Below, piece by piece: positions 26,544 through 47,080 of a stretch of 51,515 nt of DNA. Every line of letters begins with the position of its first letter. Within the stretch, counting starts at the first letter, position 1. The notes beneath the pieces are model-generated. The model saw only the letters and a program-made list of their open reading frames with translations. It made no database searches and had not been told where the DNA came from. A program made the translations under genes and the position numbers. This stretch comes from Acidimicrobiales bacterium (GTDB taxonomy: Bacteria; Actinomycetota; Acidimicrobiia; Acidimicrobiales; Bog-793): assembly GCA_050742375.1 (NCBI GenBank), contig JBOGHY010000036.1, positions 1-51,515 on the forward strand, read 5' to 3'.

Positions 26544-26583
26544 GAAATACCTATTGGGCACCGACAAAAAAGGAACGTGCACC

Positions 26584-29388: not shown

Positions 29389-29398
29389 CGAGAGGCCC

Positions 29399-29416
29399 CG
29401 CAGTCCTCTGACTGCG
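29399..29416 (+). terminator. Weak stem-loop CGCAGTC-CTCT-GACTGCG followed by TAGCTTTCT
   Basis: A 7-bp stem lies 11 nt after the stop at 29388. It may be a boundary or attenuator between the NMG module and ubiX. Confidence 0.2.
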
Positions 29417-29429
29417 TAGCTTTCTGGCC

Positions 29430-30023
29430 GTGGCGACGAGCGAGCCCCCGCCGCGGCGCCTCGTCGTCGGGGTGACCGGAGCGAGCGGGACGATCCTCGC
29501 CCGCTCTGTGCTGTCGCTCCTCGGCGCCGCCGGGGTGGAGCGCCACCTCGTCGTGAGCGCCGCCGCCAAGCGCACCGCCGGTGTCGAGTGGCCCGAAGGG
29601 CACCTCGAGTCGATGGCAGAGGTGGTGTATCCCTGGCGGGACATCGGCGCCCCGATCGCCTCCGGGTCGTTCGCCACCGACGGCATGATCGTCGTGCCGT
29701 GCAGCGTCCGGACGATGTCGAGTGTCGCCTTCGGCATCACCGACTCGCTCATCGCCCGGGCCGCCGACGTGACGCTGAAGGAGCGCCGTCGCCTCGTCCT
29801 CAGCCTGCGTGAGTCGCCGCTTCACCTCGGGCACCTGCGTGCGATGCTGGCGGTCACCGAGGCCGGCGCCATCGTGGCGCCGCCGCTGCCGCTCTTTTAC
29901 GAAAGCCCCGCCTCGATCGACGAGCTCGTCGACCAGATGGCCGGGCGCCTCGTAGGCCTGCTCGGCGTCGAGAGCAAGGCCGTGCGGCCCTGGAGCGGCG
30001 TCCGGGCGCGGCCGTCGCCGTGA
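29430..30023 (+). CDS. ubiX: UbiX-family flavin prenyltransferase
   Basis: RLVVGVTGASG...DGMIVVPCSVRTMSSVAFGITDSLIARAADVTLKERRRLVL. Confidence 0.9.
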   Translation: MATSEPPPRRLVVGVTGASGTILARSVLSLLGAAGVERHLVVSAAAKRTAGVEWPEGHLESMAEVVYPWRDIGAPIASGSFATDGMIVVPCSVRTMSSVAFGITDSLIARAADVTLKERRRLVLSLRESPLHLGHLRAMLAVTEAGAIVAPPLPLFYESPASIDELVDQMAGRLVGLLGVESKAVRPWSGVRARPSP

Positions 30024-31438
30024 GGCCCGCCTTGGACGCACCAAAGGACCGCCAGTCGGTGCGCAGCGCCCTCGCCGACCTGGCGCGGACGGGTGACCTG
30101 CTCGCGATCGAGGACGAGGTCGACCCGGTCCACGAGCTCGGCGCCTACCTCTTCGAGGCCGACGGGAGCGCCGACGGCGGGCCGGCGCTCCTTTTCGAGC
30201 GGGTCCGGGGCCACGACCATGCGGTCTTCGGCAACCTGTTGAACTCGCGCGAGCGGATCTCCCGCCTGCTCGGCGTCGAGACCTGGGCACTTCACGAGGT
30301 GCTTGCCTCCGCCCCCGACCGGGCGCTTTCCTCCGAGGCCGTGAACGGCGGGGCCTGCCAGGAGGTGGTAGTGGCCGACCCGGACCTGCGGCGACTCCCG
30401 GTCCCGGAGTTCTTCACGGACGAGACCGGCCGCTACATCACGGCGGGCGTCATCGTGGCAAAGGGAGTGACGGGCCGGCGGAACGCCTCCTTCGCCCGCT
30501 TGAAGATCCTCGACTCCAAGCGGGCATTCGTCGGGATCGCCCCCGAGCACCACCTCGCCGTGCTCGCCCGCGAGGCCGCCTCGCGAGGCCGCAGTCTTGA
30601 CGTGGCGATCACGCTCGGGAACCACCCCGCCGTGCTCCTCGCCGGCGCCTACTACCTGGAGCTCGGCGAGGACGAGCTCGAGACCGCCGGGGCCCTGTTG
30701 GGTGAGGCGCTTCAGGTGGTCGCCTGCCAGACCGTCGACGTCGAGGTGCCGGCGCAGGCAGAGATCGTGATCGAGGCCACCCTCGACGCGGGAACGAGCG
30801 TCGAGGAAGGACCGGTATCGGAGTTCTCCGGCCTCTACGAGCGCTACGGCCCCGGCCCCGTCGTAGATGTGCGACGGGTCACCATGCGATCGGGTGCTCT
30901 GTTCCAGACGATCCTTCCCGGCTATGCCAAAGAGCACGTGCTCATCGGCGCCGTCGCCATCGCCGCGGTGCTCGAGCGCCGGCTCCGCCGGGTGGTTCCC
31001 GGCGTCACCGAGGTGGCGGTCACGCCGGGGGGCTGTGGGCGGCTTCACGCCGTCGTCGGCCTCTCGCAGCCCGGCGACGGAGCCGCCGAAGCCGCCATCG
31101 GCGAAGGGCTCGGCGCCGTCAGGCTCTTGAAGCGGATCGTCGTCGTGGACGACGACATCGACGTGCACGACCCGGTGCAGGTCGAGTGGGCGATGGCGAC
31201 GAGGATGAAGGCCGACCGCGACATCTCGGTGCTCGCGGGGAGATCCTCGTCCCGCTCCGACCCGCTCGCCTCAGGTGGCGTGGTGGCCAAGCTCGGGATC
31301 AACGCCACCCGGCGCGCGGGCGACCGGGCGGACTGGCGTCGTGCCGTGCCGCCGGAGGAGATGCGAAGGCGCGCCCGCGAGGCTCTCTCGCTCGGGACCG
31401 AGAGGCTCGGGCCAACCGGGCGCTCCCCAGCGCGTTGA
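30020..31438 (+). CDS. UbiD-family (prFMN-dependent) decarboxylase
   Basis: The GTG overlaps the ubiX stop (GTGA). Contains the UbiD core EGPVSEFSGLYERYG...V..VTMR. Confidence 0.9.
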   Translation: MRPALDAPKDRQSVRSALADLARTGDLLAIEDEVDPVHELGAYLFEADGSADGGPALLFERVRGHDHAVFGNLLNSRERISRLLGVETWALHEVLASAPDRALSSEAVNGGACQEVVVADPDLRRLPVPEFFTDETGRYITAGVIVAKGVTGRRNASFARLKILDSKRAFVGIAPEHHLAVLAREAASRGRSLDVAITLGNHPAVLLAGAYYLELGEDELETAGALLGEALQVVACQTVDVEVPAQAEIVIEATLDAGTSVEEGPVSEFSGLYERYGPGPVVDVRRVTMRSGALFQTILPGYAKEHVLIGAVAIAAVLERRLRRVVPGVTEVAVTPGGCGRLHAVVGLSQPGDGAAEAAIGEGLGAVRLLKRIVVVDDDIDVHDPVQVEWAMATRMKADRDISVLAGRSSSRSDPLASGGVVAKLGINATRRAGDRADWRRAVPPEEMRRRAREALSLGTERLGPTGRSPAR

Positions 31439-31530
31439 GACGGCGCCGGACGGGGCCGATGCCGGCTTCTGTACTGTCCCCACATGCGCCAAAGAGCTGT
31501 CTCGCGTGGAACCTCTGAGGGGACCGAACG

Positions 31531-32907
31531 ATGCCGCTGATGGATCTCTCGCTCACCGGCCGGGTGGTGAGCGGCACGGGCGAGCCGGCGCGGGGCGAGA
31601 TCCTCGTCTCGGGCGGCACCATCGCAGAGGTGCACCTGCTGTCACGAGGCGAACGGCCGGCTGGCGCGACAAGGGCGATCGACGTCGGGGATGCGTACCT
31701 CATCCCGGGTGCCATCGACTGTCACGTGCACTCGGGGAGCCACCCCGGCGAGGGGATCCTGGCACTCACGACCTCGGCGGCCGCCGGCGGGGTGACGACA
31801 GCCCTCGACATGCCCTACGACGCCGAGGCTCCGGTCGTGGACCCGGGCGTCTTCGCCGCCAAGCAGGATCAGATCGCACGCGAGGCGCTCGTCGACGTCG
31901 CGCTCCTCGGCACGGTCCGCCCGGGCACCGGAGCCGACGACGTGGAGCCGCTGGTGCGGGCGGGAGCCGTCGGCTTCAAGCTGTCGCTCTTTTGCACAGA
32001 CGCCCGGCGCTTCCCTCGGATCCACGACTGCCAGTTCCTAGAGGTGCTCCGAGCCATCCGTGCGGCGGGCAGCGTCGCCTGCGTGCACGCCGAGAACGAG
32101 GAGATCATCAAGCCTCTCATCGAGCGCGCCCGCCTCGAAGGTCAGAGCGCGCCGATCGAGCACTGCCGCTCCCGCCCCCCGGTAAGCGAGACCCAGGCGG
32201 TGCTCACGGCCCTCGAATACGCGCGGGAGACCGGGGCACGCCTTCACCTCTGCCACCTGAGCCTTTCTCGCTCGGTAGACCTCGCCATGACATACGCCGC
32301 AGAGGGCACGCAGGTGAGCGCCGAGACGTGCCCGCACTATCTGACGTTCTCGGAGGCCGATATGGCCCGGGAGGCCGGGAGGCTCAAGATCAACCCTCCG
32401 CTCAGGGCCACCGGCGAGGTCGAGGCGCTGTGGGAGCGCGTCATGTCTGGAGCCGTCGACGTCGTGGCGTCCGACCACGCCCCCTGGCCGCTCGACTACA
32501 AGCTGCACCCGAACATCTTCGACAACCACTCGGGGGCGCCGGGCGTCGAGACACTTGTCTCGGTGGTTGCCTCGGGCCTGTTCGCCCACGGCGGCAGCGT
32601 GAACGACCTCGCACGCCTCGTCTCGAGCGCACCGGCCCGGCTCTTCGGGCTCTCCGGGCGAAAGGGCTCGATCGAGGCGGGAAAAGACGCCGACGTCGTG
32701 GCGCTCGACCCGGCTAGCTTCACCGTCAACGAGCACAAGCTGCACTCGAACGCCGGTTGGAGCCCTTATGACAAGATGACCTTCAACGGCCGCGCCATGC
32801 TCACGGTCTCGAGGGGCGAGGTCGTGTGGGACGGCGAACAGGTGCATGGCACGCCCGGCCGGGGACGCCTCGTCGTCCCGGAGCGCAAAGGAGGCGCCGA
32901 TGAGTGA
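31531..32907 (+). CDS. Cyclic amidohydrolase (allantoinase/dihydroorotase/hydantoinase family), candidate hydantoin-5-propionate amidohydrolase
   Basis: All binuclear-metal ligands are present in context: DCHVH, GFKLSLF (carboxylated-Lys position), VHAE, HLCHLS, ASDHAP. ATG follows GAGGGGA. Confidence 0.85.
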   Translation: MPLMDLSLTGRVVSGTGEPARGEILVSGGTIAEVHLLSRGERPAGATRAIDVGDAYLIPGAIDCHVHSGSHPGEGILALTTSAAAGGVTTALDMPYDAEAPVVDPGVFAAKQDQIAREALVDVALLGTVRPGTGADDVEPLVRAGAVGFKLSLFCTDARRFPRIHDCQFLEVLRAIRAAGSVACVHAENEEIIKPLIERARLEGQSAPIEHCRSRPPVSETQAVLTALEYARETGARLHLCHLSLSRSVDLAMTYAAEGTQVSAETCPHYLTFSEADMAREAGRLKINPPLRATGEVEALWERVMSGAVDVVASDHAPWPLDYKLHPNIFDNHSGAPGVETLVSVVASGLFAHGGSVNDLARLVSSAPARLFGLSGRKGSIEAGKDADVVALDPASFTVNEHKLHSNAGWSPYDKMTFNGRAMLTVSRGEVVWDGEQVHGTPGRGRLVVPERKGGADE

Positions 32908-34540
32908 CCCTGCTGTGCCCAGGGCGGCACGCGGCGCCACGCTGCGGTGCAGGGGCTGGCGGCAGGAGGGCCTGCTCCGCATGCTCGAGAACGTTGTCGA
33001 GATCGGCGAGCGTCCAGAGGACCTCGTCGTCTACGGCGCCCGCGGCAAGGCCGCTCGGGACTGGCCGTCGTTCCACTCGCTCGTCCAGTCGCTCTGCCAC
33101 CTCGGCGAGGACGAGACGCTCGTAGTCCAGTCGGGTAAGCCCATCGGCGTCTTCCCGAGCCCGCCCGAGGCGCCGCTCGTGCTCATGGCATGCGGCAACA
33201 TCGTCGGGCACTACGCGACCCCCGAGCACTTCGACGAGCTCTCGGACAAGGGTCTAATCATGTGGGGCGGGCTCACCGCCGGGGACTGGCAGTACATCGG
33301 CTTCCAGGGCGTCCTGCAAGGGGTCTACGAGCTTTTGCAAGCCGTCGCGAGAGAGCACTTCGACGGCTTGCTCCGCGGGCGCCTCGTCGTCAGCGCCGGG
33401 CTCGGCGGCATGGGGGCGGCCCAACCTCTCGCCATCACGATGTCGGGCGCGCGGGGCATCGTCGTCGAGGTGGACGAGGCCAAGTGCGAACGGGCGCTGC
33501 GGCGGGGACACGTCGACGCCGTCCTCGAGAACCTCGACGCCGCCCTCAACTTCCCGGCCGGAGACTCCCAAAGGGGGGTCGTCGCCCTCCATGCCAACGC
33601 CGCCGGCGTCTACCGGGAGCTGGCGGAGCGCCACGTCGTTCCCGACGTCGTCACCGACCTCACGGCCGCCCACGACGCCGTCTTCGGTTACTGCCCCCTC
33701 GCCCTGTCGGTCTCGAGCTGGCACGAGCGCCGCGAGAGCGAGCCGGCCAAGGTCGCGGCGCTCGCACGGGAGTCGATGGCGGTCCAAGTGGAGGCGATGC
33801 TGGCCCTCAAAGCAGGGGGTGCGGTCGTCTTCGAGAACGGCAACAACCTGCGCGTCCAGGCACACGCCGCCGGCGTCGAGACGGCCTTCGAGATCGACGG
33901 CTTCGCCGACCGCTACATAAGGCCGCTCTTCTGCCGCGGCATCGGCCCGTTCAGATGGGTCGCCCTAAGCGGCGAGGCGAGCGATCTCCTTCAGCTCGAC
34001 GCCCTTGTTAGAAGTACCGCCGCCCGTAGCGAGGTACGCAGATGGATCGACCTCGCCGGCCGTTACGTCGAGGTTCAGGGCCTGCCGGCGAGAAGCTGCT
34101 GGCTCGGCCACGGCGAGCGCTCCGCCTTTGCCGCCGCCGTCAACGAGCTCGTCGCCGACGACAGCCTCGCCGGGCCGGTGCTCTTCACCCGCGACCACTT
34201 CGACGCCGGCGGCATGACCCATCCCCACATCGGCACCGAGGCGATGGCAGACGGCAGCGGCGCCATCTCGGACTGGCCCATCCTCGACGCCCTACTCCTA
34301 TCGGCTTCGGGGGCCGACCTCGTGGCCGTCCACGCCGGAGGCGCCGGCTACGCCGGCTACATGCAGAGCGCCGGCGTGACCGTCGTCGCCGATGGATCCG
34401 AAAGCGCCTCGAAGCGCCTCAGACGCTGCCTTGACGCCGACACAGGGCTCGGTGTCCTGCGCTACGCCGACGCCGGCTACGACGACGCCAGAGCTCTGGC
34501 CGCGAGCTCCCGGCTCGGCCTCGGGGGACAGGACAGATGA
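32900..34540 (+). CDS. Urocanate hydratase family protein, candidate thiourocanate/urocanate hydratase
   Basis: ATG 32900 follows aaaggagg and overlaps the upstream stop by 8 nt. Urocanase motifs RCRGWRQEGLLRML, VVQSGKPIGVF, GLGGMGAAQPLA. Confidence 0.9.
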   Translation: MSDPAVPRAARGATLRCRGWRQEGLLRMLENVVEIGERPEDLVVYGARGKAARDWPSFHSLVQSLCHLGEDETLVVQSGKPIGVFPSPPEAPLVLMACGNIVGHYATPEHFDELSDKGLIMWGGLTAGDWQYIGFQGVLQGVYELLQAVAREHFDGLLRGRLVVSAGLGGMGAAQPLAITMSGARGIVVEVDEAKCERALRRGHVDAVLENLDAALNFPAGDSQRGVVALHANAAGVYRELAERHVVPDVVTDLTAAHDAVFGYCPLALSVSSWHERRESEPAKVAALARESMAVQVEAMLALKAGGAVVFENGNNLRVQAHAAGVETAFEIDGFADRYIRPLFCRGIGPFRWVALSGEASDLLQLDALVRSTAARSEVRRWIDLAGRYVEVQGLPARSCWLGHGERSAFAAAVNELVADDSLAGPVLFTRDHFDAGGMTHPHIGTEAMADGSGAISDWPILDALLLSASGADLVAVHAGGAGYAGYMQSAGVTVVADGSESASKRLRRCLDADTGLGVLRYADAGYDDARALAASSRLGLGGQDR

Positions 34541-35622
34541 GGGAGCTCAGCCACGAGGACGCCCTCGACGCCGTCTTTGGAGGCTCGATCCTCGCCTGCG
34601 GCGGCGGAGGCTGGGTCGAGCACGGGATGATGATGGGTGAGCTGGCGACCCGAATCGGCCACCCGAGCCTTTGCTCGGTCGACGAGCTCGATCCCGGCGC
34701 CCTCGTCGTCACCGTGACCGCGATCGGGGCGCCAGCCTCGCCCAACTGGGAGATCCGCCCGCTCGACTACGTCCGCGCCCTGCAGCTCGTCGCCGCCGAG
34801 CTCGACCGGCCGGTGGCGGCGGTCATGACGGCGCAGAACGGCTCCTCCACCACCCTGAACGGCTGGATCCAGTCGGCTGTCCTCGGCGTGAAGGTGCTCG
34901 ACGCCGCCGGCGACGTACGGGCGCACCCGACGGGCAAGCTCGGCGGGCTCGGCCTCACCGACCGTGAGGGTTACGAGACGGTGCAGGCCGTGGCGGGAGG
35001 CAACCGGGCGCTGTGCGGGGGCGTCGAGATCGTGGCACGGGGACAGGTCGTCACGACGTCGGACGTGCTGAGAGACGTGTGCGTGCGCGCCGGCGGCTTC
35101 ATCGCCGCCGCACGCAATCCGATCGACCTCGCCTACGTCAAGGAGAACGCCGCCATAGGCGCCGTAAGCTACGCCCTCTCACTCGGCTCGGCGCTGCGGC
35201 AGGCGACGTCAGATGCCGAGTCGGTCATGGCGGCTGCGAGCGCGGTGACGGGCGGCAGGGTCGTGGCGAGCGGCGCCGCCGCCGTGGTGGAGCCGCTGCG
35301 GACAGAAGGCGGCTTCGACCACGGAGCGCTTGGCGTGGGCGACTGCGTCCTGCACTACCTGAACGAGTACATGACGGTCGATCGCGGCGCCGAGAGGATC
35401 GCCACCTATCCCGACGTCATCGCCACCCTGTCGCTCGAGACCGGCCGGCCCGTATCGATCGCGCAGATGAGCGAGGGCAGGGAGGTGGCGATCTTCATCG
35501 TCGACCGTTCGATGCTGCCTCTCTCTTCGAGCACGAGGGACCGCTTCGCCCTCGAAGAGGTGGAGAAGATCATGGGCGTGAATCTCCTCGGGGACGAGCG
35601 CGGCGGGAGGGGTGGTTCGTGA
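34537..35622 (+). CDS. DUF917 / S-methyl-thiohydantoin-desulfurase-like protein
   Basis: ATGA overlap with the upstream gene. It has the DUF917 pattern ILACGGGGW...VTAIGAPAS...AQNGSSTT...VLDAAGDVRAHPT. The family assignment is from memory of the motif pattern. Confidence 0.75.
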   Translation: MRELSHEDALDAVFGGSILACGGGGWVEHGMMMGELATRIGHPSLCSVDELDPGALVVTVTAIGAPASPNWEIRPLDYVRALQLVAAELDRPVAAVMTAQNGSSTTLNGWIQSAVLGVKVLDAAGDVRAHPTGKLGGLGLTDREGYETVQAVAGGNRALCGGVEIVARGQVVTTSDVLRDVCVRAGGFIAAARNPIDLAYVKENAAIGAVSYALSLGSALRQATSDAESVMAAASAVTGGRVVASGAAAVVEPLRTEGGFDHGALGVGDCVLHYLNEYMTVDRGAERIATYPDVIATLSLETGRPVSIAQMSEGREVAIFIVDRSMLPLSSSTRDRFALEEVEKIMGVNLLGDERGGRGGS

Positions 35623-36872
35623 GCGCGGGGCTTTCGTCGCCCGACCTCGGGCGGATCGAGGAGGACCTGAAGGCACTGGCGACGTTCCGCGAGGCAAGCG
35701 CCCCCGGATGGACGCGCCCGGTTTTCTCGGCCGTCGACCGGGATGCCCGCCTGTGGGTAGCCGAGCAGATGCGAGCCGCCGGCATGGAGGTGAGCTCCGA
35801 TGCGGCGGCCAACCTCGTCGGCAGGCTGCGCGGCAGCGGAGCGCCCGGTGCAGTAGTGACGGGGTCGCACACCGATACCGTGCCCGGCGGCGGCCGTTTC
35901 GACGGCGTCATCGGAGTCCTCGGCGCCATCGAGGCCGTCCGTTGCCTGCGCGCAACCGGGATGCAGCTCGAGCACGACCTCGTCGTCATCGACTTCCTCG
36001 GCGAAGAGCCGAACGACTTCGGCCTCAGCTGCGTCGGAAGCAGGGCGATCGCCGGCACCCTCTCAAGAGAGCACCTCGCCCTTCTCGGGCCGAAAGAGCA
36101 CAGCCTCGCCCACGAGCTCGAGACGACGGGCGGCGATCCCGACGCCATAGCCGGCGTGGCGTGGCCGCTCGGATCGGTCCACTGCTTCGTCGAGCTCCAC
36201 ATCGAGCAGGGTCCCCGTCTCGAGCTGGCCGGCGTGCCGATCGGCGTCGTGACGGGGATCGCCGGCATCCACCGGCTCGTCGCGAGCTTCTCGGGGCGAC
36301 CCGACCATGCGGGGACGACGCCGATGGAGGCGCGCCGCGACGCCCTTCTCGGCGCCGCCGAGGCGTCGCTTTTGATCGAGAAGCTCGCCGAGGGCTCGGT
36401 CGCCACGGCGGGCCGCCTCGACGTGCACCCAGGCGCCAATAACGTCGTGCCCGCCGAAGCAGAGCTCTGGGCGGAGGCCCGGAGCGCCGACGAGTCATGG
36501 CTGGAGGAATTCGGCCGTCAGCTCGAAGCCGGCATGTCCGGCATCGGCGAGCGCCGCCGGCTCGGCGCGTCGCTTCGATGGCCGTCGCGCGAAGCCCCAG
36601 TGCTCGTGACCGACTGGGTCGCGGACGCCCTCGTAGACACGGCGGGGCACTTTGGCGTCGAGGCCCTCCGTATCCCCAGCGGTGCCGGGCACGATGCCGC
36701 CCAGATGGCGAACCTGGGCCCGATGGGCATGATCTTCGTACCTTCCAGGGACGGCCGCAGCCACTGCCCCGAGGAGTGGACCGACCTCGAGCAGATCGGT
36801 CAGGGGGTGGCGGTTCTCGCCGAAGCACTGCGGCAGCTCGACGCAACACCTCCGGGCGGGAGGGCGGGGTGA
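35619..36872 (+). CDS. M20-family Zn hydrolase (N-carbamoyl-L-amino-acid / allantoate amidohydrolase type)
   Basis: GTGA overlap with the upstream gene. Contains GSHTDTVPGGGRFDGVIGVLGAIEA and a C-terminal PSGAGHDA. Confidence 0.85.
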   Translation: MSAGLSSPDLGRIEEDLKALATFREASAPGWTRPVFSAVDRDARLWVAEQMRAAGMEVSSDAAANLVGRLRGSGAPGAVVTGSHTDTVPGGGRFDGVIGVLGAIEAVRCLRATGMQLEHDLVVIDFLGEEPNDFGLSCVGSRAIAGTLSREHLALLGPKEHSLAHELETTGGDPDAIAGVAWPLGSVHCFVELHIEQGPRLELAGVPIGVVTGIAGIHRLVASFSGRPDHAGTTPMEARRDALLGAAEASLLIEKLAEGSVATAGRLDVHPGANNVVPAEAELWAEARSADESWLEEFGRQLEAGMSGIGERRRLGASLRWPSREAPVLVTDWVADALVDTAGHFGVEALRIPSGAGHDAAQMANLGPMGMIFVPSRDGRSHCPEEWTDLEQIGQGVAVLAEALRQLDATPPGGRAG

Positions 36873-36896
36873 GCAAAGCGGGGGTGACGGGGCTGA

Positions 36897-38858
36897 ATGG
36901 CCGCACCTAAGCGCACCATCGACGACATCCTGAGCGAAGCACGGGCCGGGTTGCGCCGGCTCTCTCCGCAGGAGACCGCCGCCGCCGTGCAACGCGGCGC
37001 CCTGCTCGTCGACATCCGTCCGGCCGCGCAGCGAGGCCTCGAGGGGGAGATCCCCGGGGCGCTCGTCATCGAGCGCAACCAGCTCGAGTGGCGCTTGGAC
37101 CCCCAGAGCGACTCCCGCATACCCGCCGCGATAGATCACGACATCGAGGTCGTCGTCTTCTGCTCCGAGGGATACACCTCGAGTCTTGCCGCATCGAGCC
37201 TGCAGGAGCTCGGACTTCACCGCGCCACGGACATCGACGGTGGCTTCCACGCCTGGAGGAGAGCCGGCCTGCCCGTCACCGCGGGTGAGCTCGAGTGGCC
37301 GGAGCCCGCCGGCCGCCCGGACGGAGCGGGCCGCCGCGACGACCCCGTCCTGACGCTCGACCCCGGGAGAGCGCTCGACATCGAGGGCGTCCGGCAAGTG
37401 GTGGACGGGAGGCCTGTGGACCTCTCGTCTGCGGCACGTGAGCGCGTGCGGGCGGCAAGGGAGATCATCGATGAGACCGTTGCCTCGGGCGCCGCCGTTT
37501 ACGGCTTGACCGCCGGGCTGGGACATGCCCGCGACCAACGCCTCTCGGCCGCAAGCCTCGCCGAGTACCAGGTCGGCATCATCCTGAGCCATGCGGGCGG
37601 GGTCGGGCCACCCCTGCCCACGGCCGCCGTCCGTGCCGCCATGCTGGCACGCCTCAACAGTGCGACCCGTGGTGGCGGCGCCCTGACGGAGCGGTCGGTC
37701 GAGATGCTCGTCCGGTTCCTCAACGCGGGCGTCCACCCCGTCGTTCCTGAGATCGGCTCGGTCGGAGCATCCGACCTCATGCACCTCGCCGCGGTCGCCC
37801 TGGTGGCGATCGGCCTTGGAGAGGCCGAGTACAGGGGAAACGTCCTCACCGGTGGGGACGCGCTCGCCGCCGCCGGCCTCGGGGCCCTTCAACTTGAGGC
37901 CGGAGAAGGACTTGCCCTCGTCTCGGCCAATTCCTTCTCGATCGGTATGGGCTGCCTCGTCGCGGCAAGGGCCCGGCAGCTCGTGGAGGAGGCGGACGTG
38001 GTGGCCGCGTTGTCGCTCGAGGCAGTGGAGGGGAATCTTTCGGTGATCGAACCGGCTGTCGGTGTCGCCAAGCCTGTGCCTGGCCAGATCGCAACCATCC
38101 GCCACCTCCGCTCGCTCCTGGCGGGCAGCCCGCTCTTCGAGCCGGGGAGGGCCTCGTCGCTGCAGGATGCCTTGTCGTTTCGGGTCATCCCGCAGGTTCA
38201 CGGGGCCGCCCGTGAGCTCGTCGACGCCCTGAAAAGTGCCGTCGAGCTTGAGCTCAACGCGATGGACGACAACCCCCTCGTGTGGATTCCCGAGCGACGA
38301 CTGATCTCCAACGGGAACTTCCATCCGATGGCGATGGCCCTTTACTTCGACGCTCTCCGCCCCGCGCTCGCCCATCTCGGCTTGTGCTCCATTCGCCGCA
38401 TGAACCACCTCGGCAACGCCGTCTTCGGTGAGCCGGAAGGATTCGAGGAGATGATGACCGTCAACGCCGAGCAGTACGGGCGTGTGGCTTCGCTCTATGC
38501 CGGGGCGGCGCTCTGGGCAGAGCTCCGGCAGCTTGCCGGCCCGGCGACACTCGACATCGAGTCACTCGACTTCGAGCAGGAAGACCACGCCACGGCTTCT
38601 TTCTTGACGGTCGCTACCACAGAGCGCACCCTCGGGCTGCTCGAGCGAATCCTCGCCATCGAGCTCGGCTACGCCTCTTTCGTGTTCGACCGTCGTTCCG
38701 GCGAAGAGGGCCTCGGGGCAGGCACCGGCGCTGCTCTCGAGCGCGTTCGCTCGGCTGTCGCGGGCGCCGGCTCCGCAGCCCGGTGTAACGACGCCCTCAC
38801 CGAGCTTCTCCGAACCGGCGAGCTTCTCCGGACGGTGGGGCCTGCCAGCACACGGTGA
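36897..38858 (+). CDS. Rhodanese domain fused to an aromatic-amino-acid-lyase-family domain lacking the MIO triad, candidate ergothionase-like betaine lyase
   Basis: Residues 1-130 form a rhodanese domain with active-site loop VVFCSEGYTSS (Cys codon at 37161-37163). Residues ~150-653 are HAL/PAL-like (AVYGLTAGLGH). The MIO position reads GSVGAS-DLMHLA (37755-37778). Confidence 0.85.
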   Translation: MAAPKRTIDDILSEARAGLRRLSPQETAAAVQRGALLVDIRPAAQRGLEGEIPGALVIERNQLEWRLDPQSDSRIPAAIDHDIEVVVFCSEGYTSSLAASSLQELGLHRATDIDGGFHAWRRAGLPVTAGELEWPEPAGRPDGAGRRDDPVLTLDPGRALDIEGVRQVVDGRPVDLSSAARERVRAAREIIDETVASGAAVYGLTAGLGHARDQRLSAASLAEYQVGIILSHAGGVGPPLPTAAVRAAMLARLNSATRGGGALTERSVEMLVRFLNAGVHPVVPEIGSVGASDLMHLAAVALVAIGLGEAEYRGNVLTGGDALAAAGLGALQLEAGEGLALVSANSFSIGMGCLVAARARQLVEEADVVAALSLEAVEGNLSVIEPAVGVAKPVPGQIATIRHLRSLLAGSPLFEPGRASSLQDALSFRVIPQVHGAARELVDALKSAVELELNAMDDNPLVWIPERRLISNGNFHPMAMALYFDALRPALAHLGLCSIRRMNHLGNAVFGEPEGFEEMMTVNAEQYGRVASLYAGAALWAELRQLAGPATLDIESLDFEQEDHATASFLTVATTERTLGLLERILAIELGYASFVFDRRSGEEGLGAGTGAALERVRSAVAGAGSAARCNDALTELLRTGELLRTVGPASTR

Positions 38859-38934
38859 GCCCGGGGTGCTCGTCGGTGGTCATGTCCTAAGGACCGCCCC
38901 CCAAAGGCCCATGGCGATCGCCCTACCGGCGTCG

Positions 38935-40410
38935 TCAGCGCGCGAAGAGCGAGCCCCCGCGACCTAGTGTCATCTCGCCGAACGCCCCTGCGAGCGCACC
39001 TACCGAGTCGCCAAGATCTTGATCAGACGTGCGGCCAGGTGGAGGCACTAGCTCGCGAACGACTGACACGAGGGGCTGCAATCGAGGCGGAGCTTGCCTC
39101 TCCGTCACGAACAGCGCCTGGCTGGAGGTGGCGGCCAGCGAGGCGAGGCAGGCGTCGAGGCACCAAGCCGCCCGGCCCTCCTTTGAGTAGGCGAAGAAGG
39201 TCGGTGAGGCGACATCGTTCTGGCCGGTGAAGCCGCCGCTCTCGCTTGCAGGAAGAAACGTGCGCGCCGCCTCGTGTCGAGCCTGCTCGCTGAAGCCGAT
39301 CTGCATCATCGCGAGGCCGGCCGTCGCTCCCCGGTCGTCTTCTGAGGTGCTCAGGTGGTGTGGGAGGAGGGAGACGCTGCCGTCGTGGAGCTTCATGGTG
39401 TGGCGCTCGGCAAGGCCGCACAGGTCGGCCCAAGATGCCGAGACTCCGTCTATCGCAGGGTAGGCGCTTGCGTTGTGATAGCCACCGGTCGAGAAGGCGC
39501 GTCCGTTCGGATGCTCACTGTCGGCGGGGACGTAGACGGGGTTGTCGGTGACTGATGAGATCGCGATCTCGGCGACCTCCTCGAGGGTCGCGACCGCACG
39601 GTGCGCCTGTCCGAGCACCCGCGGCAGGATCCGGTAGCTCACCGGTGCCTGGAAGGGCCGCCGACCCTCCCGGGGGGCTTCTTCAAGCCATGACGCCAGG
39701 GCGTCCAGGGCCATGCCCTCGTACCGATCACGCCAGAGGTCCTTGAGCACCGGGTCGTAGGGCTCGAGCGGTGCCCTGAACGCCTCGATGGACAGAGCAA
39801 AGACCTGCTCGGCCAGGTCGAGGCGACGACCCGCTCTGAGGGCGGTGTCGGCGGCAAGGGCCGCAGAGCACGGGGATCCGTTGACGAGCGCCATTGGCTC
39901 CCCCTCCTCGAGCTCGAGGTCGTGATGGCGAAAGGTGCTCATCACATGCGCAAGCGGGATGATCTCTCCCGCCCCTACCTCGCCTGCTACCGGCACCTTC
40001 GCCAGCGGACGCTCGAGCATCTCGGCGATCCGCTCTGCCACCACCGGACGCGACTTGGCATTTCCCTCCACGTAGTTCGCGAGCCTGGCGAAGATGATCC
40101 CCCGCACCACGGTGTCGGGGAGGCGCTCCTCCCCAAAGCTTGTCCCCCGGCGACTCCTGCGGGACCAGGCGACCGCGTAGCCGCGCTGTTCCTCTGGGGC
40201 GATCGGGCGCTTCGCTCCCTCCCCGGCGCCTGTGGTCGTCCCGTAAATGAAAGCGGTCCTGTCGCTGTCGAGAAACGCCATGAACGACCGGCGAGACTCA
40301 TCCATCGCTCGGATGGCGCCGGGTCCGATCTCCACGCTCTCGCCGTCGATCGAGACGCGCCTGTAGTTCTCCAGGGTGAAGTCTTGCCGGGACTGGACGA
40401 CGACGGTCAT
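38935..40410 (-). CDS. Aromatic-amino-acid-lyase-family protein lacking the MIO triad (paralogue 2)
   Basis: ATG follows AAGGAGG. Contains FIYGTTTGAGE. The MIO position reads GEVGA-GEIIPLAH (39946-39984). Confidence 0.8.
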   Translation of the reverse strand: MTVVVQSRQDFTLENYRRVSIDGESVEIGPGAIRAMDESRRSFMAFLDSDRTAFIYGTTTGAGEGAKRPIAPEEQRGYAVAWSRRSRRGTSFGEERLPDTVVRGIIFARLANYVEGNAKSRPVVAERIAEMLERPLAKVPVAGEVGAGEIIPLAHVMSTFRHHDLELEEGEPMALVNGSPCSAALAADTALRAGRRLDLAEQVFALSIEAFRAPLEPYDPVLKDLWRDRYEGMALDALASWLEEAPREGRRPFQAPVSYRILPRVLGQAHRAVATLEEVAEIAISSVTDNPVYVPADSEHPNGRAFSTGGYHNASAYPAIDGVSASWADLCGLAERHTMKLHDGSVSLLPHHLSTSEDDRGATAGLAMMQIGFSEQARHEAARTFLPASESGGFTGQNDVASPTFFAYSKEGRAAWCLDACLASLAATSSQALFVTERQAPPRLQPLVSVVRELVPPPGRTSDQDLGDSVGALAGAFGEMTLGRGGSLFAR

Positions 40411-40490
40411 TAATGCCTCCTTGCCTACGAGCTAGCCTATGTTGGCAGGTCGGCTCGCACCTCGCCCTGGGTCTACTACCGTTTCGTGGG

Positions 40491-40640
40491 TCAACGAGCC
40501 CAAGGTAGTGACGGTGCGATACCAGCTCTATCCAGCACGATCATCGTGATGAAGCTCTCGGGGTCATCGAACCCGCGGGCGGCCGAGACGAGCCGGGCGA
40601 TGGCGGCGTTGTTGGACTCGGAGAGCGCGTTCGTCGGGGA
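40491..40640 (-). pseudogene. Degraded C-terminal remnant of an ISL3-like transposase
   Basis: The translation SPTNALSESNNAAIARLVSAARGFDDPESFITMIVLDRAGI follows the ISL3 C-terminal pattern (SN..LEG.N.KI.LI.R.A.GF.....FIAMI.L). No upstream transposase body is present. The family assignment is tentative. Confidence 0.4.
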
Positions 40641-40677
40641 TGGATCCCGCTGCGCCCGGGCTAGGTTCTGACCGCGA

Positions 40678-42321
40678 ATGCGCGAGCGCTCGGTCGAGCT
40701 CACCGGGGAGGACCTCACCGTCGACGACGTGGTCGCCGTCGCACGGGACCGTTCGAAGGTGACCATCTCACCCGAGGCGATCCGCCGGGTCCGCCTCGCG
40801 AGGCAAGTGGTCGAGACCGTCTATTCGAGCGGCGAGGCGGTCTACGGACTGAACACGGGTCTCGGCTCGTTCGCCCGCTACAGGATGACCCCGGACCAGG
40901 TCCGGGAGTTCTCCTTCGCGACGATGGCCGACCAGCTCGCCTCCTACGGCCGCCCCCTCTCGATCGAGGTGGTACGGGCGATGATGGTGGCGAGGGCGAA
41001 CGGCATGGCCAAGGCGGGGGTAGGAGTCCGCTTGGAGCTCCTCCAGCTCTTGGTCGAGCTCTTGAACCGCCAGGTTCATCCGGTAGTCCGCGAGGTCGGC
41101 TCCGTCGGCCAGGGCGACCTCTCGGAGATGTCGGACATCGGAAAGGTGATGATCGGTATCGGCCGGGCCGAGGTGGGCGGCCAGATCCTGGATGGGAGAG
41201 AGGCTCTCGCCCGGGTCGGCCTCGAACCCATCGACCTCGCACCGAAAGAGGCGCTCGCTCTCATAAGCGCCAACGGGGTCACGCTCGGCTGGGGCTCGCT
41301 CGTCCTCTACGACGTGGCCGACCTGCTCGACTGGCTCCAGGTCGCGGCGGCACTCTCACTCGAGGGCTTCGCCGGGAACCTTTCGATAATCCACCCGGGC
41401 GCCGCCCGCTTCCAGCCTCACATCGGCGCCAACGCCGCGGCCGACCGCCTCCGCAGCCTCCTCGAGGGCTCCTACCTCTGGGAGCCCGGCTCGGCTCGCA
41501 ACCTCCAGGATCCGCTCTCGTTCCGCTGTGTGCCGCGCACCCATGGCGCCCTTTACGACACGCTCGCCTACGCCAGGGCGACACTCGAGGCGGAGCTCAA
41601 TTCCGCCAGCGACAACCCTCTCGTCCTCGTCGACGAGAACGTCATCATCTCCGTCGGTTACTTCGACATCGCCACGGTCGCGATGGCCTTCGACCTCGTG
41701 CGCATAGCCATCGCGAATGCCCTCAAGGTCGCGAACGAACGCGTGCAGAAGCTTCTCTGGAACCACTTCAGCGGCCTCCCGAGCGAGCTGTCGCTCAAGA
41801 AGGGAACTGCGAACGGGCTGAAGCCGATGGGGCGCTGGTGCGCCGCCATCACGGCCGAGGCCCGGTCGCTTGCGAACCCGGTCACGCTCGACTACGTGGG
41901 CCAAGTGGCCGAGGGCGTGGAGGATCACGCGAGCATGGCGCCGCTCGCGGTGAAGCGTGCCTACGAGCTCGTCTCCGTCGCGCACAGGGCCGTCGCTTAC
42001 GAGCTCGTCATCGCCTCTCAGGCAGTGGACCTAAGAGGTCGTCGCCCACTCGGACGGGGCACCATGCTCGCCTTCGAGACGGTGCGCGAGCACGTCCCGA
42101 AGCTGGAGGAAGTGACGACCTGGGATGCCGATGTCGAGGCCGTGGTCGAGACGGTCGCGAGCGGCTATCTCGGAGCACAGGTCGCCACGGTCGTTGGCGG
42201 TCGCCGTGACCTCTCTGATCACGAGGGCCCCGGCTCTCTGTCGAAAGCCGCCATCGAGGAACTGGAACAGGCGAGCTCCGAGGAGCCCTACGGCACCATC
42301 GACACAGGCGGAGGCAGGTGA
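40678..42321 (+). CDS. Aromatic-amino-acid-lyase-family protein lacking the MIO triad (paralogue 3)
   Basis: HAL-like N-terminus LTGEDLTVDDVVAVA... and AVYGLNTGLGSF. The MIO position reads GSVGQ-GDLSEMS (41098-41121). Confidence 0.85.
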   Translation: MRERSVELTGEDLTVDDVVAVARDRSKVTISPEAIRRVRLARQVVETVYSSGEAVYGLNTGLGSFARYRMTPDQVREFSFATMADQLASYGRPLSIEVVRAMMVARANGMAKAGVGVRLELLQLLVELLNRQVHPVVREVGSVGQGDLSEMSDIGKVMIGIGRAEVGGQILDGREALARVGLEPIDLAPKEALALISANGVTLGWGSLVLYDVADLLDWLQVAAALSLEGFAGNLSIIHPGAARFQPHIGANAAADRLRSLLEGSYLWEPGSARNLQDPLSFRCVPRTHGALYDTLAYARATLEAELNSASDNPLVLVDENVIISVGYFDIATVAMAFDLVRIAIANALKVANERVQKLLWNHFSGLPSELSLKKGTANGLKPMGRWCAAITAEARSLANPVTLDYVGQVAEGVEDHASMAPLAVKRAYELVSVAHRAVAYELVIASQAVDLRGRRPLGRGTMLAFETVREHVPKLEEVTTWDADVEAVVETVASGYLGAQVATVVGGRRDLSDHEGPGSLSKAAIEELEQASSEEPYGTIDTGGGR

Positions 42322-42389
42322 CAGCTGAGGCAGCCGGCCGGCGCGACTACGGTGCCACCGGCGACGACGTCCGGACGGCTGGCTCTCGC

Positions 42390-44114
42390 TCAGGTCTTGT
42401 AGGCGTTCCAGAGGAAGAACTGGCCCTGAGCCGTCGGGTAGGTGCCGTGCACGTTCTTCCGGCTGGCGCTCAGGTAGTTGTAGAAGTACGGGAACATGAC
42501 CGGCGTCTCGTCAAGCAGGAGGTTCTCGATCTCCTTCGCAAGGCTCCGCTGCTTCCCGAGGTCGATGGCCGCGACGAACTCCTTCGACAGCCTGTCGTAG
42601 GTGCGGTCGTTGAAACGGGCGGCGTTCCAGGCCCCCTGGCCGGTCTTCTTGTCGGGTGACTGAAGAGGCGCCTCGAGGTAAAGGTTCGGCACGGAGCGGG
42701 CGCCGTAGTCGACCTCGCTCATCTTCGCGTCGAGCCAGTCCGAGTGGCCGAAGACGCCCGTGCCGTAGTACTTGTCCGGCGCCTCGATCACAAGCGAGAT
42801 GTCGACTCCGATCTGCTTTGCGGACTCGGCGATGATCTGGGCGAGCGCCGGCATCTCTTGGGTCGTCTCGGTGTAGAGCGGCGTCTTGAAACCCCTCGCG
42901 ACACCGCCCTTCGCAAGGTACTCCCTGGCGAGCTTGAGGTTCTTGTGCCGCTGGGGGACCGCCGGCGGTCCGACCCTCGAGGGGAAGACGGGCGCAAAGG
43001 GGCTGTCGTTCCCGATCGATGCCTGGCCCTTGAAGAGCGCCTTCACTATCCCCGGCCGGTCGAGGGTGAGGGCGATCGCCCGGCGGACGTACTTGCTCGT
43101 GAAGGGATGAAGGTCCGTGCGCATCGACACCTCGCGGTGCGTGGCCGCCTTCAGGGAGGTGACGTTGTAGCTGCCCTCTAAGAGCTGAGGGCTCGACGCC
43201 ACAGAGAACTGAAACATGCAGTCGATCGAGCCCGCCTGAAGGGCAGCAGTGCACGGGGTCTCGGTCGCATAGAAGGTGAACTGGATCTCCTTCGGCAGAG
43301 CCTCTGCTCCCCAGTAGTGCGGGTTCCGCACGTAGACCGCACCCGTGCTCGGGTGGAAGCTCTTCATCTTGAAATGTCCCGTCCCGGGGAAGCTCTTTGG
43401 GTAATCCGAGTAGTCGAAGCCCTTCGGGACGACGATCATGTTGTAGTTGTCCTCGGTGACGGCATCGATGAAAGAGGCGTCGGGTTGCTCGAGGTGGAGG
43501 GCGAGGGTCGTCTCATTCACCTTCACGACGCCGTCGGGGACGAGCAGGCCGCCGAAGATGGAGAGGGCATTGCGGCCCGTCTTGGGGTTGCACTGGGTCT
43601 GGAAGCTGTAGACGACGTCGTCAATCGTCATGGGCGTGCCGTCGTTGAACTTCACGCCTTGGCGGATCTTGAAGGTCCACACAGTGGCGTCGTGATTCGG
43701 TTTCCAGCTCGTGGCAAGCCACGGGTGATAATGGAGGTGCTGGTCGACGAAGACGAGGAACTCGCCGACGTTGCCGATGAGCTCGAGGCCACCCTGGTCC
43801 TCGATGATGATCGGGTTGACCGCCGTGGCGGGAACGAGAATGCCGGCGCGGATCGTCGCGCCCTTGTGGCTGGCCGCCGCCGCCGTCGGCCGGGCAGGCG
43901 ACGCCGCGGCGACGCCCACACCGCCGACGGCCTCGACCATCGCCCCGGCCAGCGGGAGGCCGATGCCGAAGGCCGTCGCCTTTCTAAGGAAGCTCCGCCG
44001 GTCGACTCTCCCGGCGGCGAGCTCGTCGACAAAGTGCTGTTCGATCGGGCCCTGGCCGGCTCGGAGCTGGTCAAGCCGCCTGTGGTTGACCTTGCCCGGT
44101 TCCTCGGTGGTCAT
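42390..44114 (-). CDS. ABC transporter substrate-binding protein, family 5, Tat signal
   Basis: ATG 44114 follows GGAAGGAAGG. Twin-arginine leader RRSFLRKATAFGIGLPLAG. The 41 upstream codons in the track ORF are not supported. Confidence 0.85.
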   Translation of the reverse strand: MTTEEPGKVNHRRLDQLRAGQGPIEQHFVDELAAGRVDRRSFLRKATAFGIGLPLAGAMVEAVGGVGVAAASPARPTAAAASHKGATIRAGILVPATAVNPIIIEDQGGLELIGNVGEFLVFVDQHLHYHPWLATSWKPNHDATVWTFKIRQGVKFNDGTPMTIDDVVYSFQTQCNPKTGRNALSIFGGLLVPDGVVKVNETTLALHLEQPDASFIDAVTEDNYNMIVVPKGFDYSDYPKSFPGTGHFKMKSFHPSTGAVYVRNPHYWGAEALPKEIQFTFYATETPCTAALQAGSIDCMFQFSVASSPQLLEGSYNVTSLKAATHREVSMRTDLHPFTSKYVRRAIALTLDRPGIVKALFKGQASIGNDSPFAPVFPSRVGPPAVPQRHKNLKLAREYLAKGGVARGFKTPLYTETTQEMPALAQIIAESAKQIGVDISLVIEAPDKYYGTGVFGHSDWLDAKMSEVDYGARSVPNLYLEAPLQSPDKKTGQGAWNAARFNDRTYDRLSKEFVAAIDLGKQRSLAKEIENLLLDETPVMFPYFYNYLSASRKNVHGTYPTAQGQFFLWNAYKT

Positions 44115-44260
44115 GACGCCCTTCCTTCCTGCTCTCCCGAGAAAGTCCTCGGGTGGCTCTGTCACACGATCGAAACAAACGCGTAGCAGTTCGTACCATA
44201 ACCGCCCCCGCCCCGCCATGCCAGGGGTTGGGTCCACTGTTGCTCGACCGGCAACGGCTC

Positions 44261-46276: not shown

Positions 46277-47080
46277 CTAGGACCAGGGAGTCGACGGCCG
46301 TTCCTGCAGCTCCCCATCGACGTAGAGGGCGTCGACCTTCTCGTCGTAAAAGCAGATGTGGTTCTCGATCTTCGGGCATTCGGGGATCGGTAACGGGTAG
46401 CACCACGCGGTGTCCTTCACCAGGTGCTCACCGACTCTCACCGAGTAGTAGGTGGCCTCGCCCTTGTAGGGGCAGCGGCTCGTCGATTCGGACGGCTCGA
46501 GGAGGTCGAGGCGGACGTCGAGCTTCGGGATGTAGTAACGGGTCGGCAGGTGCGTCTCGAACAAGAGCCGCGGCCGGCGAGTCTCGGCGACTCTCTCGCC
46601 TGCTATCTCGACGACGACGTGGCGCGAGCTCTGCAGCACGTCGACCCGCTTGTAAGGATCCCTCGGATGGACGTAGACCTCGTCATCCTCTTCGAACCAG
46701 GCATCCATCTTCGACCAGTAAAATGCCACCAGACCCGAAAGCTCGCCCGGCGCGCCGGGAAGCGGATCGACATAGCGCCAGGCGGCGTTCTCTGCAAGGC
46801 GGTCGCCGACCTTCACCGAGTAGTAGCTAGCCTCGCCCTTGTAAGGGCAGCTCGTTCGGTGGTCACTTGGGGCGAGCAGGTCCGCCCGGACGTCTTCGTC
46901 GGGGAAGTAATAGACCGGGAGGTGTCCCGTCTCGAACATCGTCCTCACCTGTGTCGAGTCCGCGACGGGCTTACCGGCGAAGCATGCCCTCACGCGCTTC
47001 GGACAGCTCTCGAAGCGGACGGCGTGCTCGCCTCCACTGTCTCCGCCGGTGGTCCTTCGGTCCTCGAGCATCTGGCTCAT
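46277..47080 (-). CDS. Tandem DUF427 domain protein
   Basis: Two DUF427 repeats, each ending in CPYKGEA(S/T)YYSV. ATG 47080 follows AGGAG and overlaps the ATPase stop (ATGA). Confidence 0.8.
   Translation of the reverse strand: MSQMLEDRRTTGGDSGGEHAVRFESCPKRVRACFAGKPVADSTQVRTMFETGHLPVYYFPDEDVRADLLAPSDHRTSCPYKGEASYYSVKVGDRLAENAAWRYVDPLPGAPGELSGLVAFYWSKMDAWFEEDDEVYVHPRDPYKRVDVLQSSRHVVVEIAGERVAETRRPRLLFETHLPTRYYIPKLDVRLDLLEPSESTSRCPYKGEATYYSVRVGEHLVKDTAWCYPLPIPECPKIENHICFYDEKVDALYVDGELQERPSTPWS

Follow-up and report, generated by a model that had tools for sequence, protein, structure and literature searches.

Why would a bacterium attach a sulfurtransferase domain to an enzyme with the fold of histidine ammonia-lyase (HAL)? 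The question is raised by a 51,515-bp contig of an uncultured, soil-type Acidimicrobiales bacterium (JBOGHY010000036.1; hereafter the window; G+C content of 61-73% per 1-kb segment), in which a plus-strand open reading frame (ORF) at 36897-38858 encodes a rhodanese domain followed in frame by a full HAL-fold lyase domain that lacks the motif forming the 4-methylideneimidazole-5-one (MIO) cofactor. A preliminary description of this DNA, made from its letters alone, had reported a single uninterrupted ORF of 653 codons with the rhodanese loop CSEGYTS and a lyase without the MIO motif, and these features were confirmed by translation and Pfam searches. We tentatively propose, with somewhat less than even confidence, that the ORF encodes one bifunctional cytoplasmic protein in which the lyase is joined to a tethered persulfide carrier.

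A Single ORF Encodes Two Folded Domains

The ORF begins with an ATG 24 nt past the stop codon of an ErtE-like gene (36870-36872) and continues without interruption through 653 codons and a stop codon. Its product is identical to NCBI protein MGH9291452.1, labeled "aromatic amino acid lyase [Acidimicrobiales bacterium]" in the record of a metagenome-assembled genome (MAG). The Pfam Rhodanese profile matches residues 23-122 (score of 47.2 bits, threshold 22.2; E = 3e-12), and Lyase_aromatic matches residues 160-618 with 408.8 bits over profile positions 1-465 of 466. The parts of the ORF are as follows:

36897-38858, plus strand: whole fusion ORF, 653 aa plus stop
36915-37283, plus strand: rhodanese domain, residues ~7-129 (Pfam match, PDB relatives, predicted local distance difference test [pLDDT] scores of 91-98)
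37161-37163, plus strand: TGC codon of Cys89, first residue of the six-residue loop C-S-E-G-Y-T(-S), within FCSEGYTSS
37284-37346, plus strand: interdomain linker, residues ~130-150, differing among the fusions in both length and sequence, with predicted disorder
37347-38855, plus strand: MIO-less, ergothionase-like HAL-fold lyase domain, residues 151-653
37764-37775, plus strand: G290-A-S-D293, the site of the MIO-forming Ala-Ser-Gly in HAL, with the Gly absent
38481-38498, plus strand: R529-V-A-S-L-Y534, which aligns with the Lys384 region of Treponema ergothionase and reads G-x-x-x-R-Y in unfused relatives

Structure prediction, suggested in the preliminary description, folded both domains confidently and left the linker disordered. 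In the AlphaFold2 model, built from a 114-sequence alignment (mean pLDDT 91.5; predicted template modeling score 0.77), only linker residues 132-146 score a pLDDT below 50, and the protein is accordingly modeled as two folded domains on a predicted flexible tether.

The Fusion Is Conserved in Acidimicrobiales

A database search for the same domain architecture, which the preliminary description had put forward as a check, found it in 11 clusters at 90% identity (P0001-P0011) among 5.8 billion proteins. JGI, ENA, NCBI, and Logan assemblies all contribute to the clusters, whose identity to the query ranges from 56-98% and which hold ~30 member sequences, with 18 from many assemblies in one cluster alone. 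All members that carry an organism name are from Acidimicrobiales or Actinomycetota MAGs, and the only database labels that the proteins bear are "histidine ammonia-lyase" and "aromatic amino acid lyase." Mean pairwise identity among the 11 fusions is 74% for the rhodanese domain, 65% for the lyase domain, and 25% for the linker, whose length varies from 15 to 34 residues. Cys89 is present in all 11 and is the sole invariant cysteine; P0010 contains no other cysteine in the entire protein. Because the architecture recurs in 11 clusters, the domains are conserved well above the linker, and Cys89 is invariant, the sequences argue that the fusion is real and under selection.

A sequencing or assembly artefact joining two genes is vanishingly improbable. 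A separate-gene arrangement does exist in another lineage (metagenome contig L028, described below), and otherwise the artefact is only a prior possibility. Against it stand the differing linker lengths of the uninterrupted fusions, an independent partial protein (98% identical) that also crosses the rhodanese/lyase junction, and the continuity of reading frame and third-position G+C content across that junction in the window. We rejected the artefact because independent assemblies carry the fusion, and the junction, about which the preliminary description had advised caution, is genuine.

When residues 1-260 were used in a HMMER search of a representative library of 1.84 billion proteins, no fusion representative was found among the matches listed; the fusion clusters are probably subsumed there under unfused representatives. 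The same search brought up CDO-rhodanese fusions, along with fusions of other kinds. An exact-pattern scan of GTDB species genomes, which gives no measure of the distribution of the fusion, found seven stand-alone rhodanese loci (six in Nonomuraea and one in an Acidobacteriota MAG) with inconsistent contexts.

The Lyase Domain Resembles Ergothionase

The best PDB sequence match of the lyase domain is the Treponema denticola ergothionase (6s7j; 208 bits), ahead of HALs and tyrosine aminomutases (TAMs). The same structure is the best fold match (TM-score 0.91 normalized to the target), and Foldseek TM-scores to ergothionase, HAL, and TAM lie between 0.84 and 0.91. The full-length profile match and the fold place the domain in Lyase_aromatic (PF00221, HAL/PAL fold). 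It falls outside the MIO-dependent lyases and aminomutases (HAL, PAL, TAL), as Ala-Ser-Gly is absent: the fusion reads GSVG-AS-DL, HAL has the one-residue-longer GSVG-ASG-DL, and ergothionase has SSIG-EG-DI, equal in length to that of the fusion. Across 64 close homologs, the site is GASD, GAAD, GAGD, or GDSD, with the Ser not conserved and the Gly missing. The match to the NCBIfam hutH equivalog (338 bits) is below the cut-off of 539.

Four residues expected of an ergothionase-type active site, Y202, H232, R429, and E562, are invariant in the 64 homologs. By alignment to 6s7j, Y202 corresponds to the catalytic Tyr (Tyr54 of the T. denticola enzyme), H232 and E562 to the imidazole ligands (His83 of HAL and Glu412 of the T. 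denticola enzyme), and R429 to the carboxylate Arg (Arg283 of HAL). Because 6s7j is the best match, the MIO motif is absent, and these four residues are invariant, the lyase domain is predicted to be a MIO-less trimethylammonia-lyase for an imidazole betaine.

According to two preprints that cite the structural paper (10.1101/2025.08.13.670108; 10.64898/2026.04.22.720169), Lys384 of the Treponema ergothionase binds the thiolate and is essential, whereas Asn or Gln occupies that position in Swoo_3913 and SO_3299, lyases of sulfur-free betaines, which ties this residue to sulfur recognition. In the fusion, Lys384 aligns with Tyr534 (ungapped MAFFT alignment, in which the 28-residue spacing to Glu562 is kept) or with Ser532 (gapped phmmer alignment). 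Arg533, in the motif x-R-Y, is found in 51 of 52 unfused MIO-less relatives and is absent from all 11 fusions and from the closest unfused relative, P0012. The fused clade instead carries an Arg at 528 or 529 throughout, a site occupied by Gly in 88% of unfused relatives, and Lys336, Arg325, Trp506, and Arg573, conserved in the unfused clade, are replaced in the fused clade. The shift of Arg from 533 to 528/529 may represent a relocated sulfur-binding cation or an altered substrate. We had considered that no cation is left in the fused clade to bind the thiolate, a view that we softened in light of the Arg at 528 or 529 in every member.

This pocket bears on the main rival to a carrier role for the rhodanese, in which the domain would handle the sulfur of the substrate: Cys89 would react with the C2 sulfur of the betaine, forming a mixed disulfide or persulfide or stripping the sulfur in a reversal of the EanB (anaerobic ergothioneine synthase) reaction, and the lyase would act on a tethered or desulfurized, hercynine-like substrate. 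The loss of Arg533 and of other conserved basic residues in the fused clade favors it. In addition, an Arg-bearing lyase in the same cluster (paralog 3, below) could serve plain ergothioneine, the conserved Glu and Tyr of the rhodanese loop could act as acid/base, and EanB reportedly shows a rhodanese Cys performing C2-sulfur chemistry on this scaffold. However, P0012 and L023 lack Arg533 with no rhodanese nearby, the Arg at 528 or 529 may simply stand in for Arg533, and another fusion locus (L007) retains a thiohydantoin desulfurase homolog with no paralog 3 seen; the sulfur seems to remain on the intermediate. EanB, moreover, is a ~450-aa tandem-domain enzyme, against the single domain here, the linker is disordered and variable, and the rhodanese is indistinguishable from its stand-alone and CDO_I-linked relatives, as shown below. 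We consider direct handling of substrate sulfur unlikely. Its most explicit form appears decidedly unlikely: Cys89 would act on the C2 sulfur of ergothioneine or thiourocanate by tethering or abstraction, EanB in reverse, and the Arg533-less pocket would process the tethered or desulfurized betaine. If true, the protein would be a sulfur-salvaging desulfurase-lyase, a mechanism that to our knowledge has no precedent in any HAL-family enzyme.

The Rhodanese Domain Is a Member of a Common Actinobacterial Subfamily

The closest PDB relative of the rhodanese domain is 2hhg (E = 1e-17), and 6mxv and YgaP are also related. An above-threshold profile match, the fold, and a Cys-led six-residue loop place the domain among rhodanese (PF00581) sulfurtransferases, and C89-S-E-G-Y-T aligns with the Cys loops of 2hhg (CAGGLR) and 6mxv. 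The loop has a conserved Glu at +2 and no Arg or Lys, so that the basic residue of thiosulfate:cyanide sulfurtransferases is missing, and thiosulfate may not be the sulfur donor. No Arg is found six positions past Cys89 (CSEGYTSS), as it would be in the seven-residue C-X5-R loop of Cdc25/Acr2-type phosphatases or arsenate reductases, and the single ~125-aa rhodanese domain does not have the EanB-type architecture, in which tandem rhodaneses span ~450 aa and include a hercynine pocket.

With the rhodanese domain alone as query, >7,000 relatives were retrieved, and the best 120 of these are stand-alone proteins of 125-181 aa, 66-83% identical, those with names being mainly from Actinomycetota (Cellulomonas, Actinomadura, Acidimicrobiia, and Pseudonocardiales). 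Among 50 stand-alone relatives (125-150 aa, 67-83% identical), the equivalent of Cys89 is found in all and the identical loop CSEGYTSS in 40. Since no alignment position discriminates the 11 fused from the 50 stand-alone rhodaneses, the fused domain looks like an unmodified member of a common actinobacterial subfamily, a generic module rather than one specialized for the lyase.

The neighbors and fusion partners of this subfamily are frequently enzymes of thiol metabolism. In Cellulomonas, the rhodanese gene overlaps the stop codon of a gene encoding a CDO_I thiol dioxygenase, and four of five tested proteins with the rhodanese at the C-terminus of a longer chain are CDO_I-rhodanese fusions. 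Fusion or translational coupling to CDO_I was seen in P0244, P0250, P0260, and P0304 and at 5465-6432 of L012. Rhodanese genes have been described beside the CDO-homologous mercaptosuccinate dioxygenase, where their role is unsettled (PMC5373536), and rhodanese modules are also fused to persulfide dioxygenases (PMC12934615, PMC9163753). Further partners are methyltransferases (P0308, P0357) and a PNPOx or Trans_reg_C DNA-binding domain (P0306; Trans_reg_C in P0291). Separately, P0102 is a MIO-less lyase that has Arg533 and carries a C-terminal class-I methyltransferase domain. A "Rosetta triangle" of lyase, methyltransferase, and rhodanese (P0102, P0308, P0357) was rejected, as the methyltransferase domains appear, on inspection of their sequences, to be different in kind.

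A second rhodanese-lyase pairing was found in L028 (1995-3383), a metagenome contig in which a separate rhodanese gene ends ~15 nt before a MIO-less, paralog-3-like lyase gene. This rhodanese is 51% identical and has the loop CAHGEST, the lyase loop is GTVGQSDL, and the contig ends within the lyase. L028 is an independent association of the two families and has the unfused gene order that loss of a stop codon could turn into a fusion. The metagenome scan returned 80 loci, of which 76 have or seem to have the MIO motif (73 ASG, one SSG, and two in which the motif was not located), and only L023-L025 and L028 are clearly MIO-less. Upstream of the L028 pair lie genes for a Fur/Zur-like regulator and a ZnuA-like binding protein, as judged from the translated sequence.

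Could the fusion be neutral, with the rhodanese keeping a housekeeping role of its own, unconnected to the lyase or its pathway? The generic character of the domain, the very large stand-alone family with its variable genomic contexts, and the several different fusion partners would fit such an origin. The fusion has nevertheless been kept, with its Cys intact, down to 56% identity over the clade, and the adjacency in L028 is independent. P0121 (83% identical), the nearest stand-alone relative, is encoded immediately ahead of DUF427 genes, an amidohydrolase gene, and a gene for a lyase like paralog 2, a gene set that also accompanies the fusion. We regard a neutral fusion as improbable.

The invariance of a single cysteine bears on a third possibility, that the domain is a regulatory sensor whose Cys becomes persulfidated or oxidized when sulfide or sulfane sulfur builds up and switches the lyase off or on, as feedback. 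The preliminary description had listed redox gating of the lyase among possible roles, beside capture of sulfur as a persulfide and handling of the substrate thiol. Gating by an intramolecular disulfide is excluded, because Cys89 is the only invariant cysteine and P0010 has no other; gating by persulfidation is possible. The domain does sit on the entry enzyme of the pathway, a natural control point, the tether is flexible, and the fusion of P0291 to Trans_reg_C suggests sensing in some contexts. Against this, no surface residues specific to the fused proteins were found that would mark a docking or inhibitory interface, and the linker is unconserved. We give a sensor role little credence.

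The Fusion Is the Last Gene of an Operon with Ergothioneine-Type Genes

The fusion is the last gene of a seven-gene plus-strand operon whose genes are tightly packed or overlap. The six genes that precede it are as follows:

29412-30023, plus strand: ubiX
30020-31438, plus strand: ubiD
31531-32907, plus strand: ErtD-like hydantoin-5-propionate amidohydrolase
32846-34540, plus strand: (thio)urocanate hydratase-like protein of the urocanase family (highest score with the thiourocanate hydratase model, 720 bits; hutU cut-off exceeded as well)
34537-35622, plus strand: thiohydantoin desulfurase-like protein of the S-Me-THD family (best against the thiohydantoin desulfurase model, 390 bits)
~35637-36872, plus strand: ErtE-like carbamoylase

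The four ert homologs (31531-36872) have their best matches to ergothioneine-pathway NCBIfam models. The preliminary description had placed the fusion in a pathway whose third step liberates sulfide, and the operon does encode a thiohydantoin desulfurase homolog as the third enzyme. Ergothioneine catabolism has reportedly been reconstituted as a five-enzyme pathway without a sulfur-transfer component. The nearest relatives of the UbiD protein are HmfF (6h6v, 268 bits) and AnInD, both heteroaromatic-acid decarboxylases, and not Fdc1, which decarboxylates acrylates, and we know of no role for an HmfF-like UbiD in ergothioneine catabolism.

Seven further fusion loci were examined over up to 10 kb on each side, with the proteins of the window as a tblastn panel for annotation. 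The genes around the fusion include the following:

L006: as in the window, with the fusion, ErtD, hydratase, desulfurase, ErtE, paralog 3, and paralog 2
L007: UbiX-UbiD-fusion (UbiX/UbiD at 1538-3602, directly upstream of the fusion), a major facilitator superfamily (MFS) gene, paralog 2, a long DUF427 protein, and four ert genes
L001: UbiX-UbiD-fusion (UbiX/UbiD at 7925-9932, directly upstream of the fusion), MFS gene, paralog 2, DUF427 proteins, ErtE, and ErtD, with no hydratase or desulfurase within 10 kb on each side
L003: CDO_I-DUF427-fusion-DUF427-paralog 2, an Opp transporter, two genes for proteins like trimethylamine dehydrogenase (TMADH), and Fae
L002 and L005: no ert genes

The ert genes thus cluster with the fusion in the window, L006, and L007, do so partly in L001, and do not in L002, L003, and L005; ergothioneine-type genes are frequent but not constant companions of the fusion. 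Genes of the methylated-amine type (the set of TMADH-like, electron transfer flavoprotein [ETF], glutamine synthetase [GS]-like, N-methylglutamate, and GCV_T genes) are also found in L002, L003, and L006. In L003, the CDO_I gene (8479-9159) is the second gene upstream of the fusion. Among unfused relatives, P0088 and P0106 are orphan genes with uninformative contexts.

Two further members of the lyase family are encoded immediately downstream of the fusion:

38935-40410, minus strand: paralog 2, a divergent lyase-family protein of 491 aa, convergent with the fusion
40678-42321, plus strand: paralog 3, a full-length MIO-less lyase of 547 aa with the loop GQGD (GSVGQGDL)

In paralog 2, the whole MIO-loop segment is missing, as are counterparts of the His and Glu imidazole ligands; the protein is encoded with the fusion in five of the eight loci and with a stand-alone rhodanese in L008. 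Paralog 3 scores 248 bits against the Treponema ergothionase, compared with 208 bits for the fusion, has an Arg exactly opposite Lys384, and is encoded in L006 as well. Paralog 3 may be the canonical ergothionase of the locus, and the fusion, as one of three MIO-less paralogs, may be neither its sole nor its canonical ergothionase.

A Proposed Tethered Carrier for Pathway Sulfur

In the mechanism that we propose, the lyase would remove trimethylamine from ergothioneine or a very close imidazole-betaine analog, yielding the acrylate (thiourocanate), which the hydratase, desulfurase, ErtD-like, and ErtE-like enzymes would then convert to glutamate. The trimethylamine would be oxidized by the neighboring TMADH-like and N-methylglutamate-pathway gene products. 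The rhodanese would be an ordinary, flexibly tethered single-Cys sulfurtransferase, predicted to be catalytically competent, whose Cys89 would hold sulfane sulfur as a persulfide and hand it to an acceptor or dioxygenase. The fusion itself would most probably have originated by loss of the stop codon between adjacent genes. The identity of the substrate, the persulfide chemistry of Cys89, and the sulfur species handled are the parts of this scheme that we infer; the domain architecture and the extent to which it is conserved, the catalytic residues, the gene neighborhood, and the relationships of both families are as observed above.

We prefer a tethered carrier of sulfane sulfur, acting on pathway sulfur apart from C-N cleavage, because the domain is generic, the tether is disordered, and the usual partners of the subfamily are sulfur-oxidizing dioxygenases, one of which is encoded in L003; the probability that we assign to it approaches but does not reach one-half. 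A rigid composite active site is unlikely, since the linker is 15-34 aa long, unconserved, and predicted to be disordered. The retention of the fusion and the recurrence of rhodanese-lyase and rhodanese-thiol-dioxygenase pairings in Actinomycetota suggest that sulfur trafficking is an unrecognized part of 2-thioimidazole betaine degradation in these bacteria.

Several observations weigh against this proposal. The desulfurase family reportedly releases free H2S by hydrolysis, and a rhodanese needs an oxidant to pick up H2S; no sulfide:quinone reductase or persulfide dioxygenase was seen within the window. The rhodanese is joined to the enzyme of the first step and not to that of the third, which releases the sulfur. 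The rhodanese loop, with its Glu and without a basic residue, is atypical for thiosulfate-type sulfurtransferases. All four ert homologs score below their NCBIfam equivalog cut-offs, reflecting either taxonomic divergence or a somewhat different pathway intermediate. Because no urocanase or desulfurase gene was seen in the retrieved sequence (up to 10 kb on each side) at four of the seven other loci (L001, L002, L003, and L005), and because HmfF-like UbiD and UbiX are encoded upstream in the same operon at three of the eight, the real substrate may not be ergothioneine. Finally, the rearrangement of the lyase pocket in the fused clade (Arg533 gone, Arg at 528/529, K336/R325/W506 lost) hints at a possible link between the rhodanese and recognition of the substrate.

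Relation to Known Enzymes

Ergothionase, known from T. denticola (6s7j), Burkholderia sp. HME13 (ErtA), and Shewanella (SO_3057), shares with the fusion a HAL fold without MIO, an equally shortened loop, the catalytic Tyr, and the three residues (His, Glu, and Arg) that bind the substrate, and the fusion operon encodes homologs of the downstream Ert enzymes. The fusion, which is known from sequence, differs in being only ~30% identical, in its N-terminal rhodanese, and in the Tyr534 or Ser532 and the Arg at 528/529 of the Lys384 region. The histidine-betaine and N-pi-methyl-histidine-betaine trimethylammonia-lyases Swoo_3913 and SO_3299 are likewise MIO-less, and their residue at the Lys384 position is not cationic (10.1101/2025.08.13.670108; 10.64898/2026.04.22.720169). 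Those enzymes, however, are periplasmic, coupled to a flavocytochrome reductase, and without a rhodanese, whereas the thiohydantoin desulfurase homolog in the context of the fusion implies a sulfur-bearing substrate.

On the rhodanese side, the stand-alone CSEGYTS proteins and the CDO_I-rhodanese fusions and operons, which recall the mercaptosuccinate dioxygenase clusters (PMC5373536), belong to the same subfamily and have the identical loop, but the partner of the CDO-linked forms is a thiol dioxygenase rather than a lyase. CstB-type persulfide dioxygenase-rhodanese fusions (PMC12934615, PMC9163753) resemble the protein in tethering to a sulfur-metabolizing enzyme a rhodanese that shuttles persulfide or sulfite; there, the partner is a metallo-beta-lactamase-fold dioxygenase and both domains treat the same sulfur atom in sequence.

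EanB is also comparable, in that its rhodanese Cys persulfide acts at C2 of hercynine/ergothioneine, but it is much larger, has tandem domains and no lyase, and is biosynthetic rather than catabolic, and no specific sequence similarity to it was found. A search of the literature accessible to us found no paper linking a rhodanese with ergothionase or any HAL-family lyase, in agreement with the preliminary description, which knew of no ammonia-lyase-family enzyme with a sulfurtransferase domain. Both domain families and the pathway are already known. What is new is the architecture and its apparent restriction to uncultured Acidimicrobiales, together with the change in the lyase pocket that accompanies the fusion and the pairing of this rhodanese subfamily with enzymes of small-molecule thiol metabolism. 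The fusion offers a defined protein for testing what the widespread, often CDO-linked CSEGYTS rhodanese does, and the three MIO-less paralogs and the relocated Arg in one locus form a natural series for studying substrate choice in trimethylammonia-lyases.

Other Genes of the Window

The remaining genes with a possible bearing on the operon are as follows:

10780-29104: methylated-amine island, with a homocysteine-S-methyltransferase-family gene, an Fe-S/CCG oxidoreductase, ETF alpha and beta, an amino-acid permease, GS-like, DAO oxidase, and GCV_T genes
11911-14358: TMADH-like flavoprotein, upstream of the operon
8955-10577, 42390-44237, and 47077-51097, minus strand: Opp/Dpp-type ABC transporter genes and two SBP_bac_5 binding proteins, flanking the lyase genes
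46283-47080, minus strand: two-repeat DUF427 protein (NTP_transf_9, beta-tent fold)

Components of N-methylglutamate synthase and dehydrogenase are also encoded in the methylated-amine island upstream of the operon. These upstream genes would provide a complete route for trimethylamine released by the lyase, and the island is consistent with its consumption. A promoter and terminator scan of 28800-42500 yielded nothing informative.

Opp/Dpp-type transporter genes likewise flank the lyase genes in L002, L003, and L004. If a transporter of this type imports the betaine, it differs in type from the known ergothioneine importer EgtU. DUF427 proteins recur beside the fusion, paralog 2, and the closest stand-alone rhodanese (L001, L003, L007, and L008-L011), in a short two-repeat form and a long multi-repeat form of 550-650 aa.

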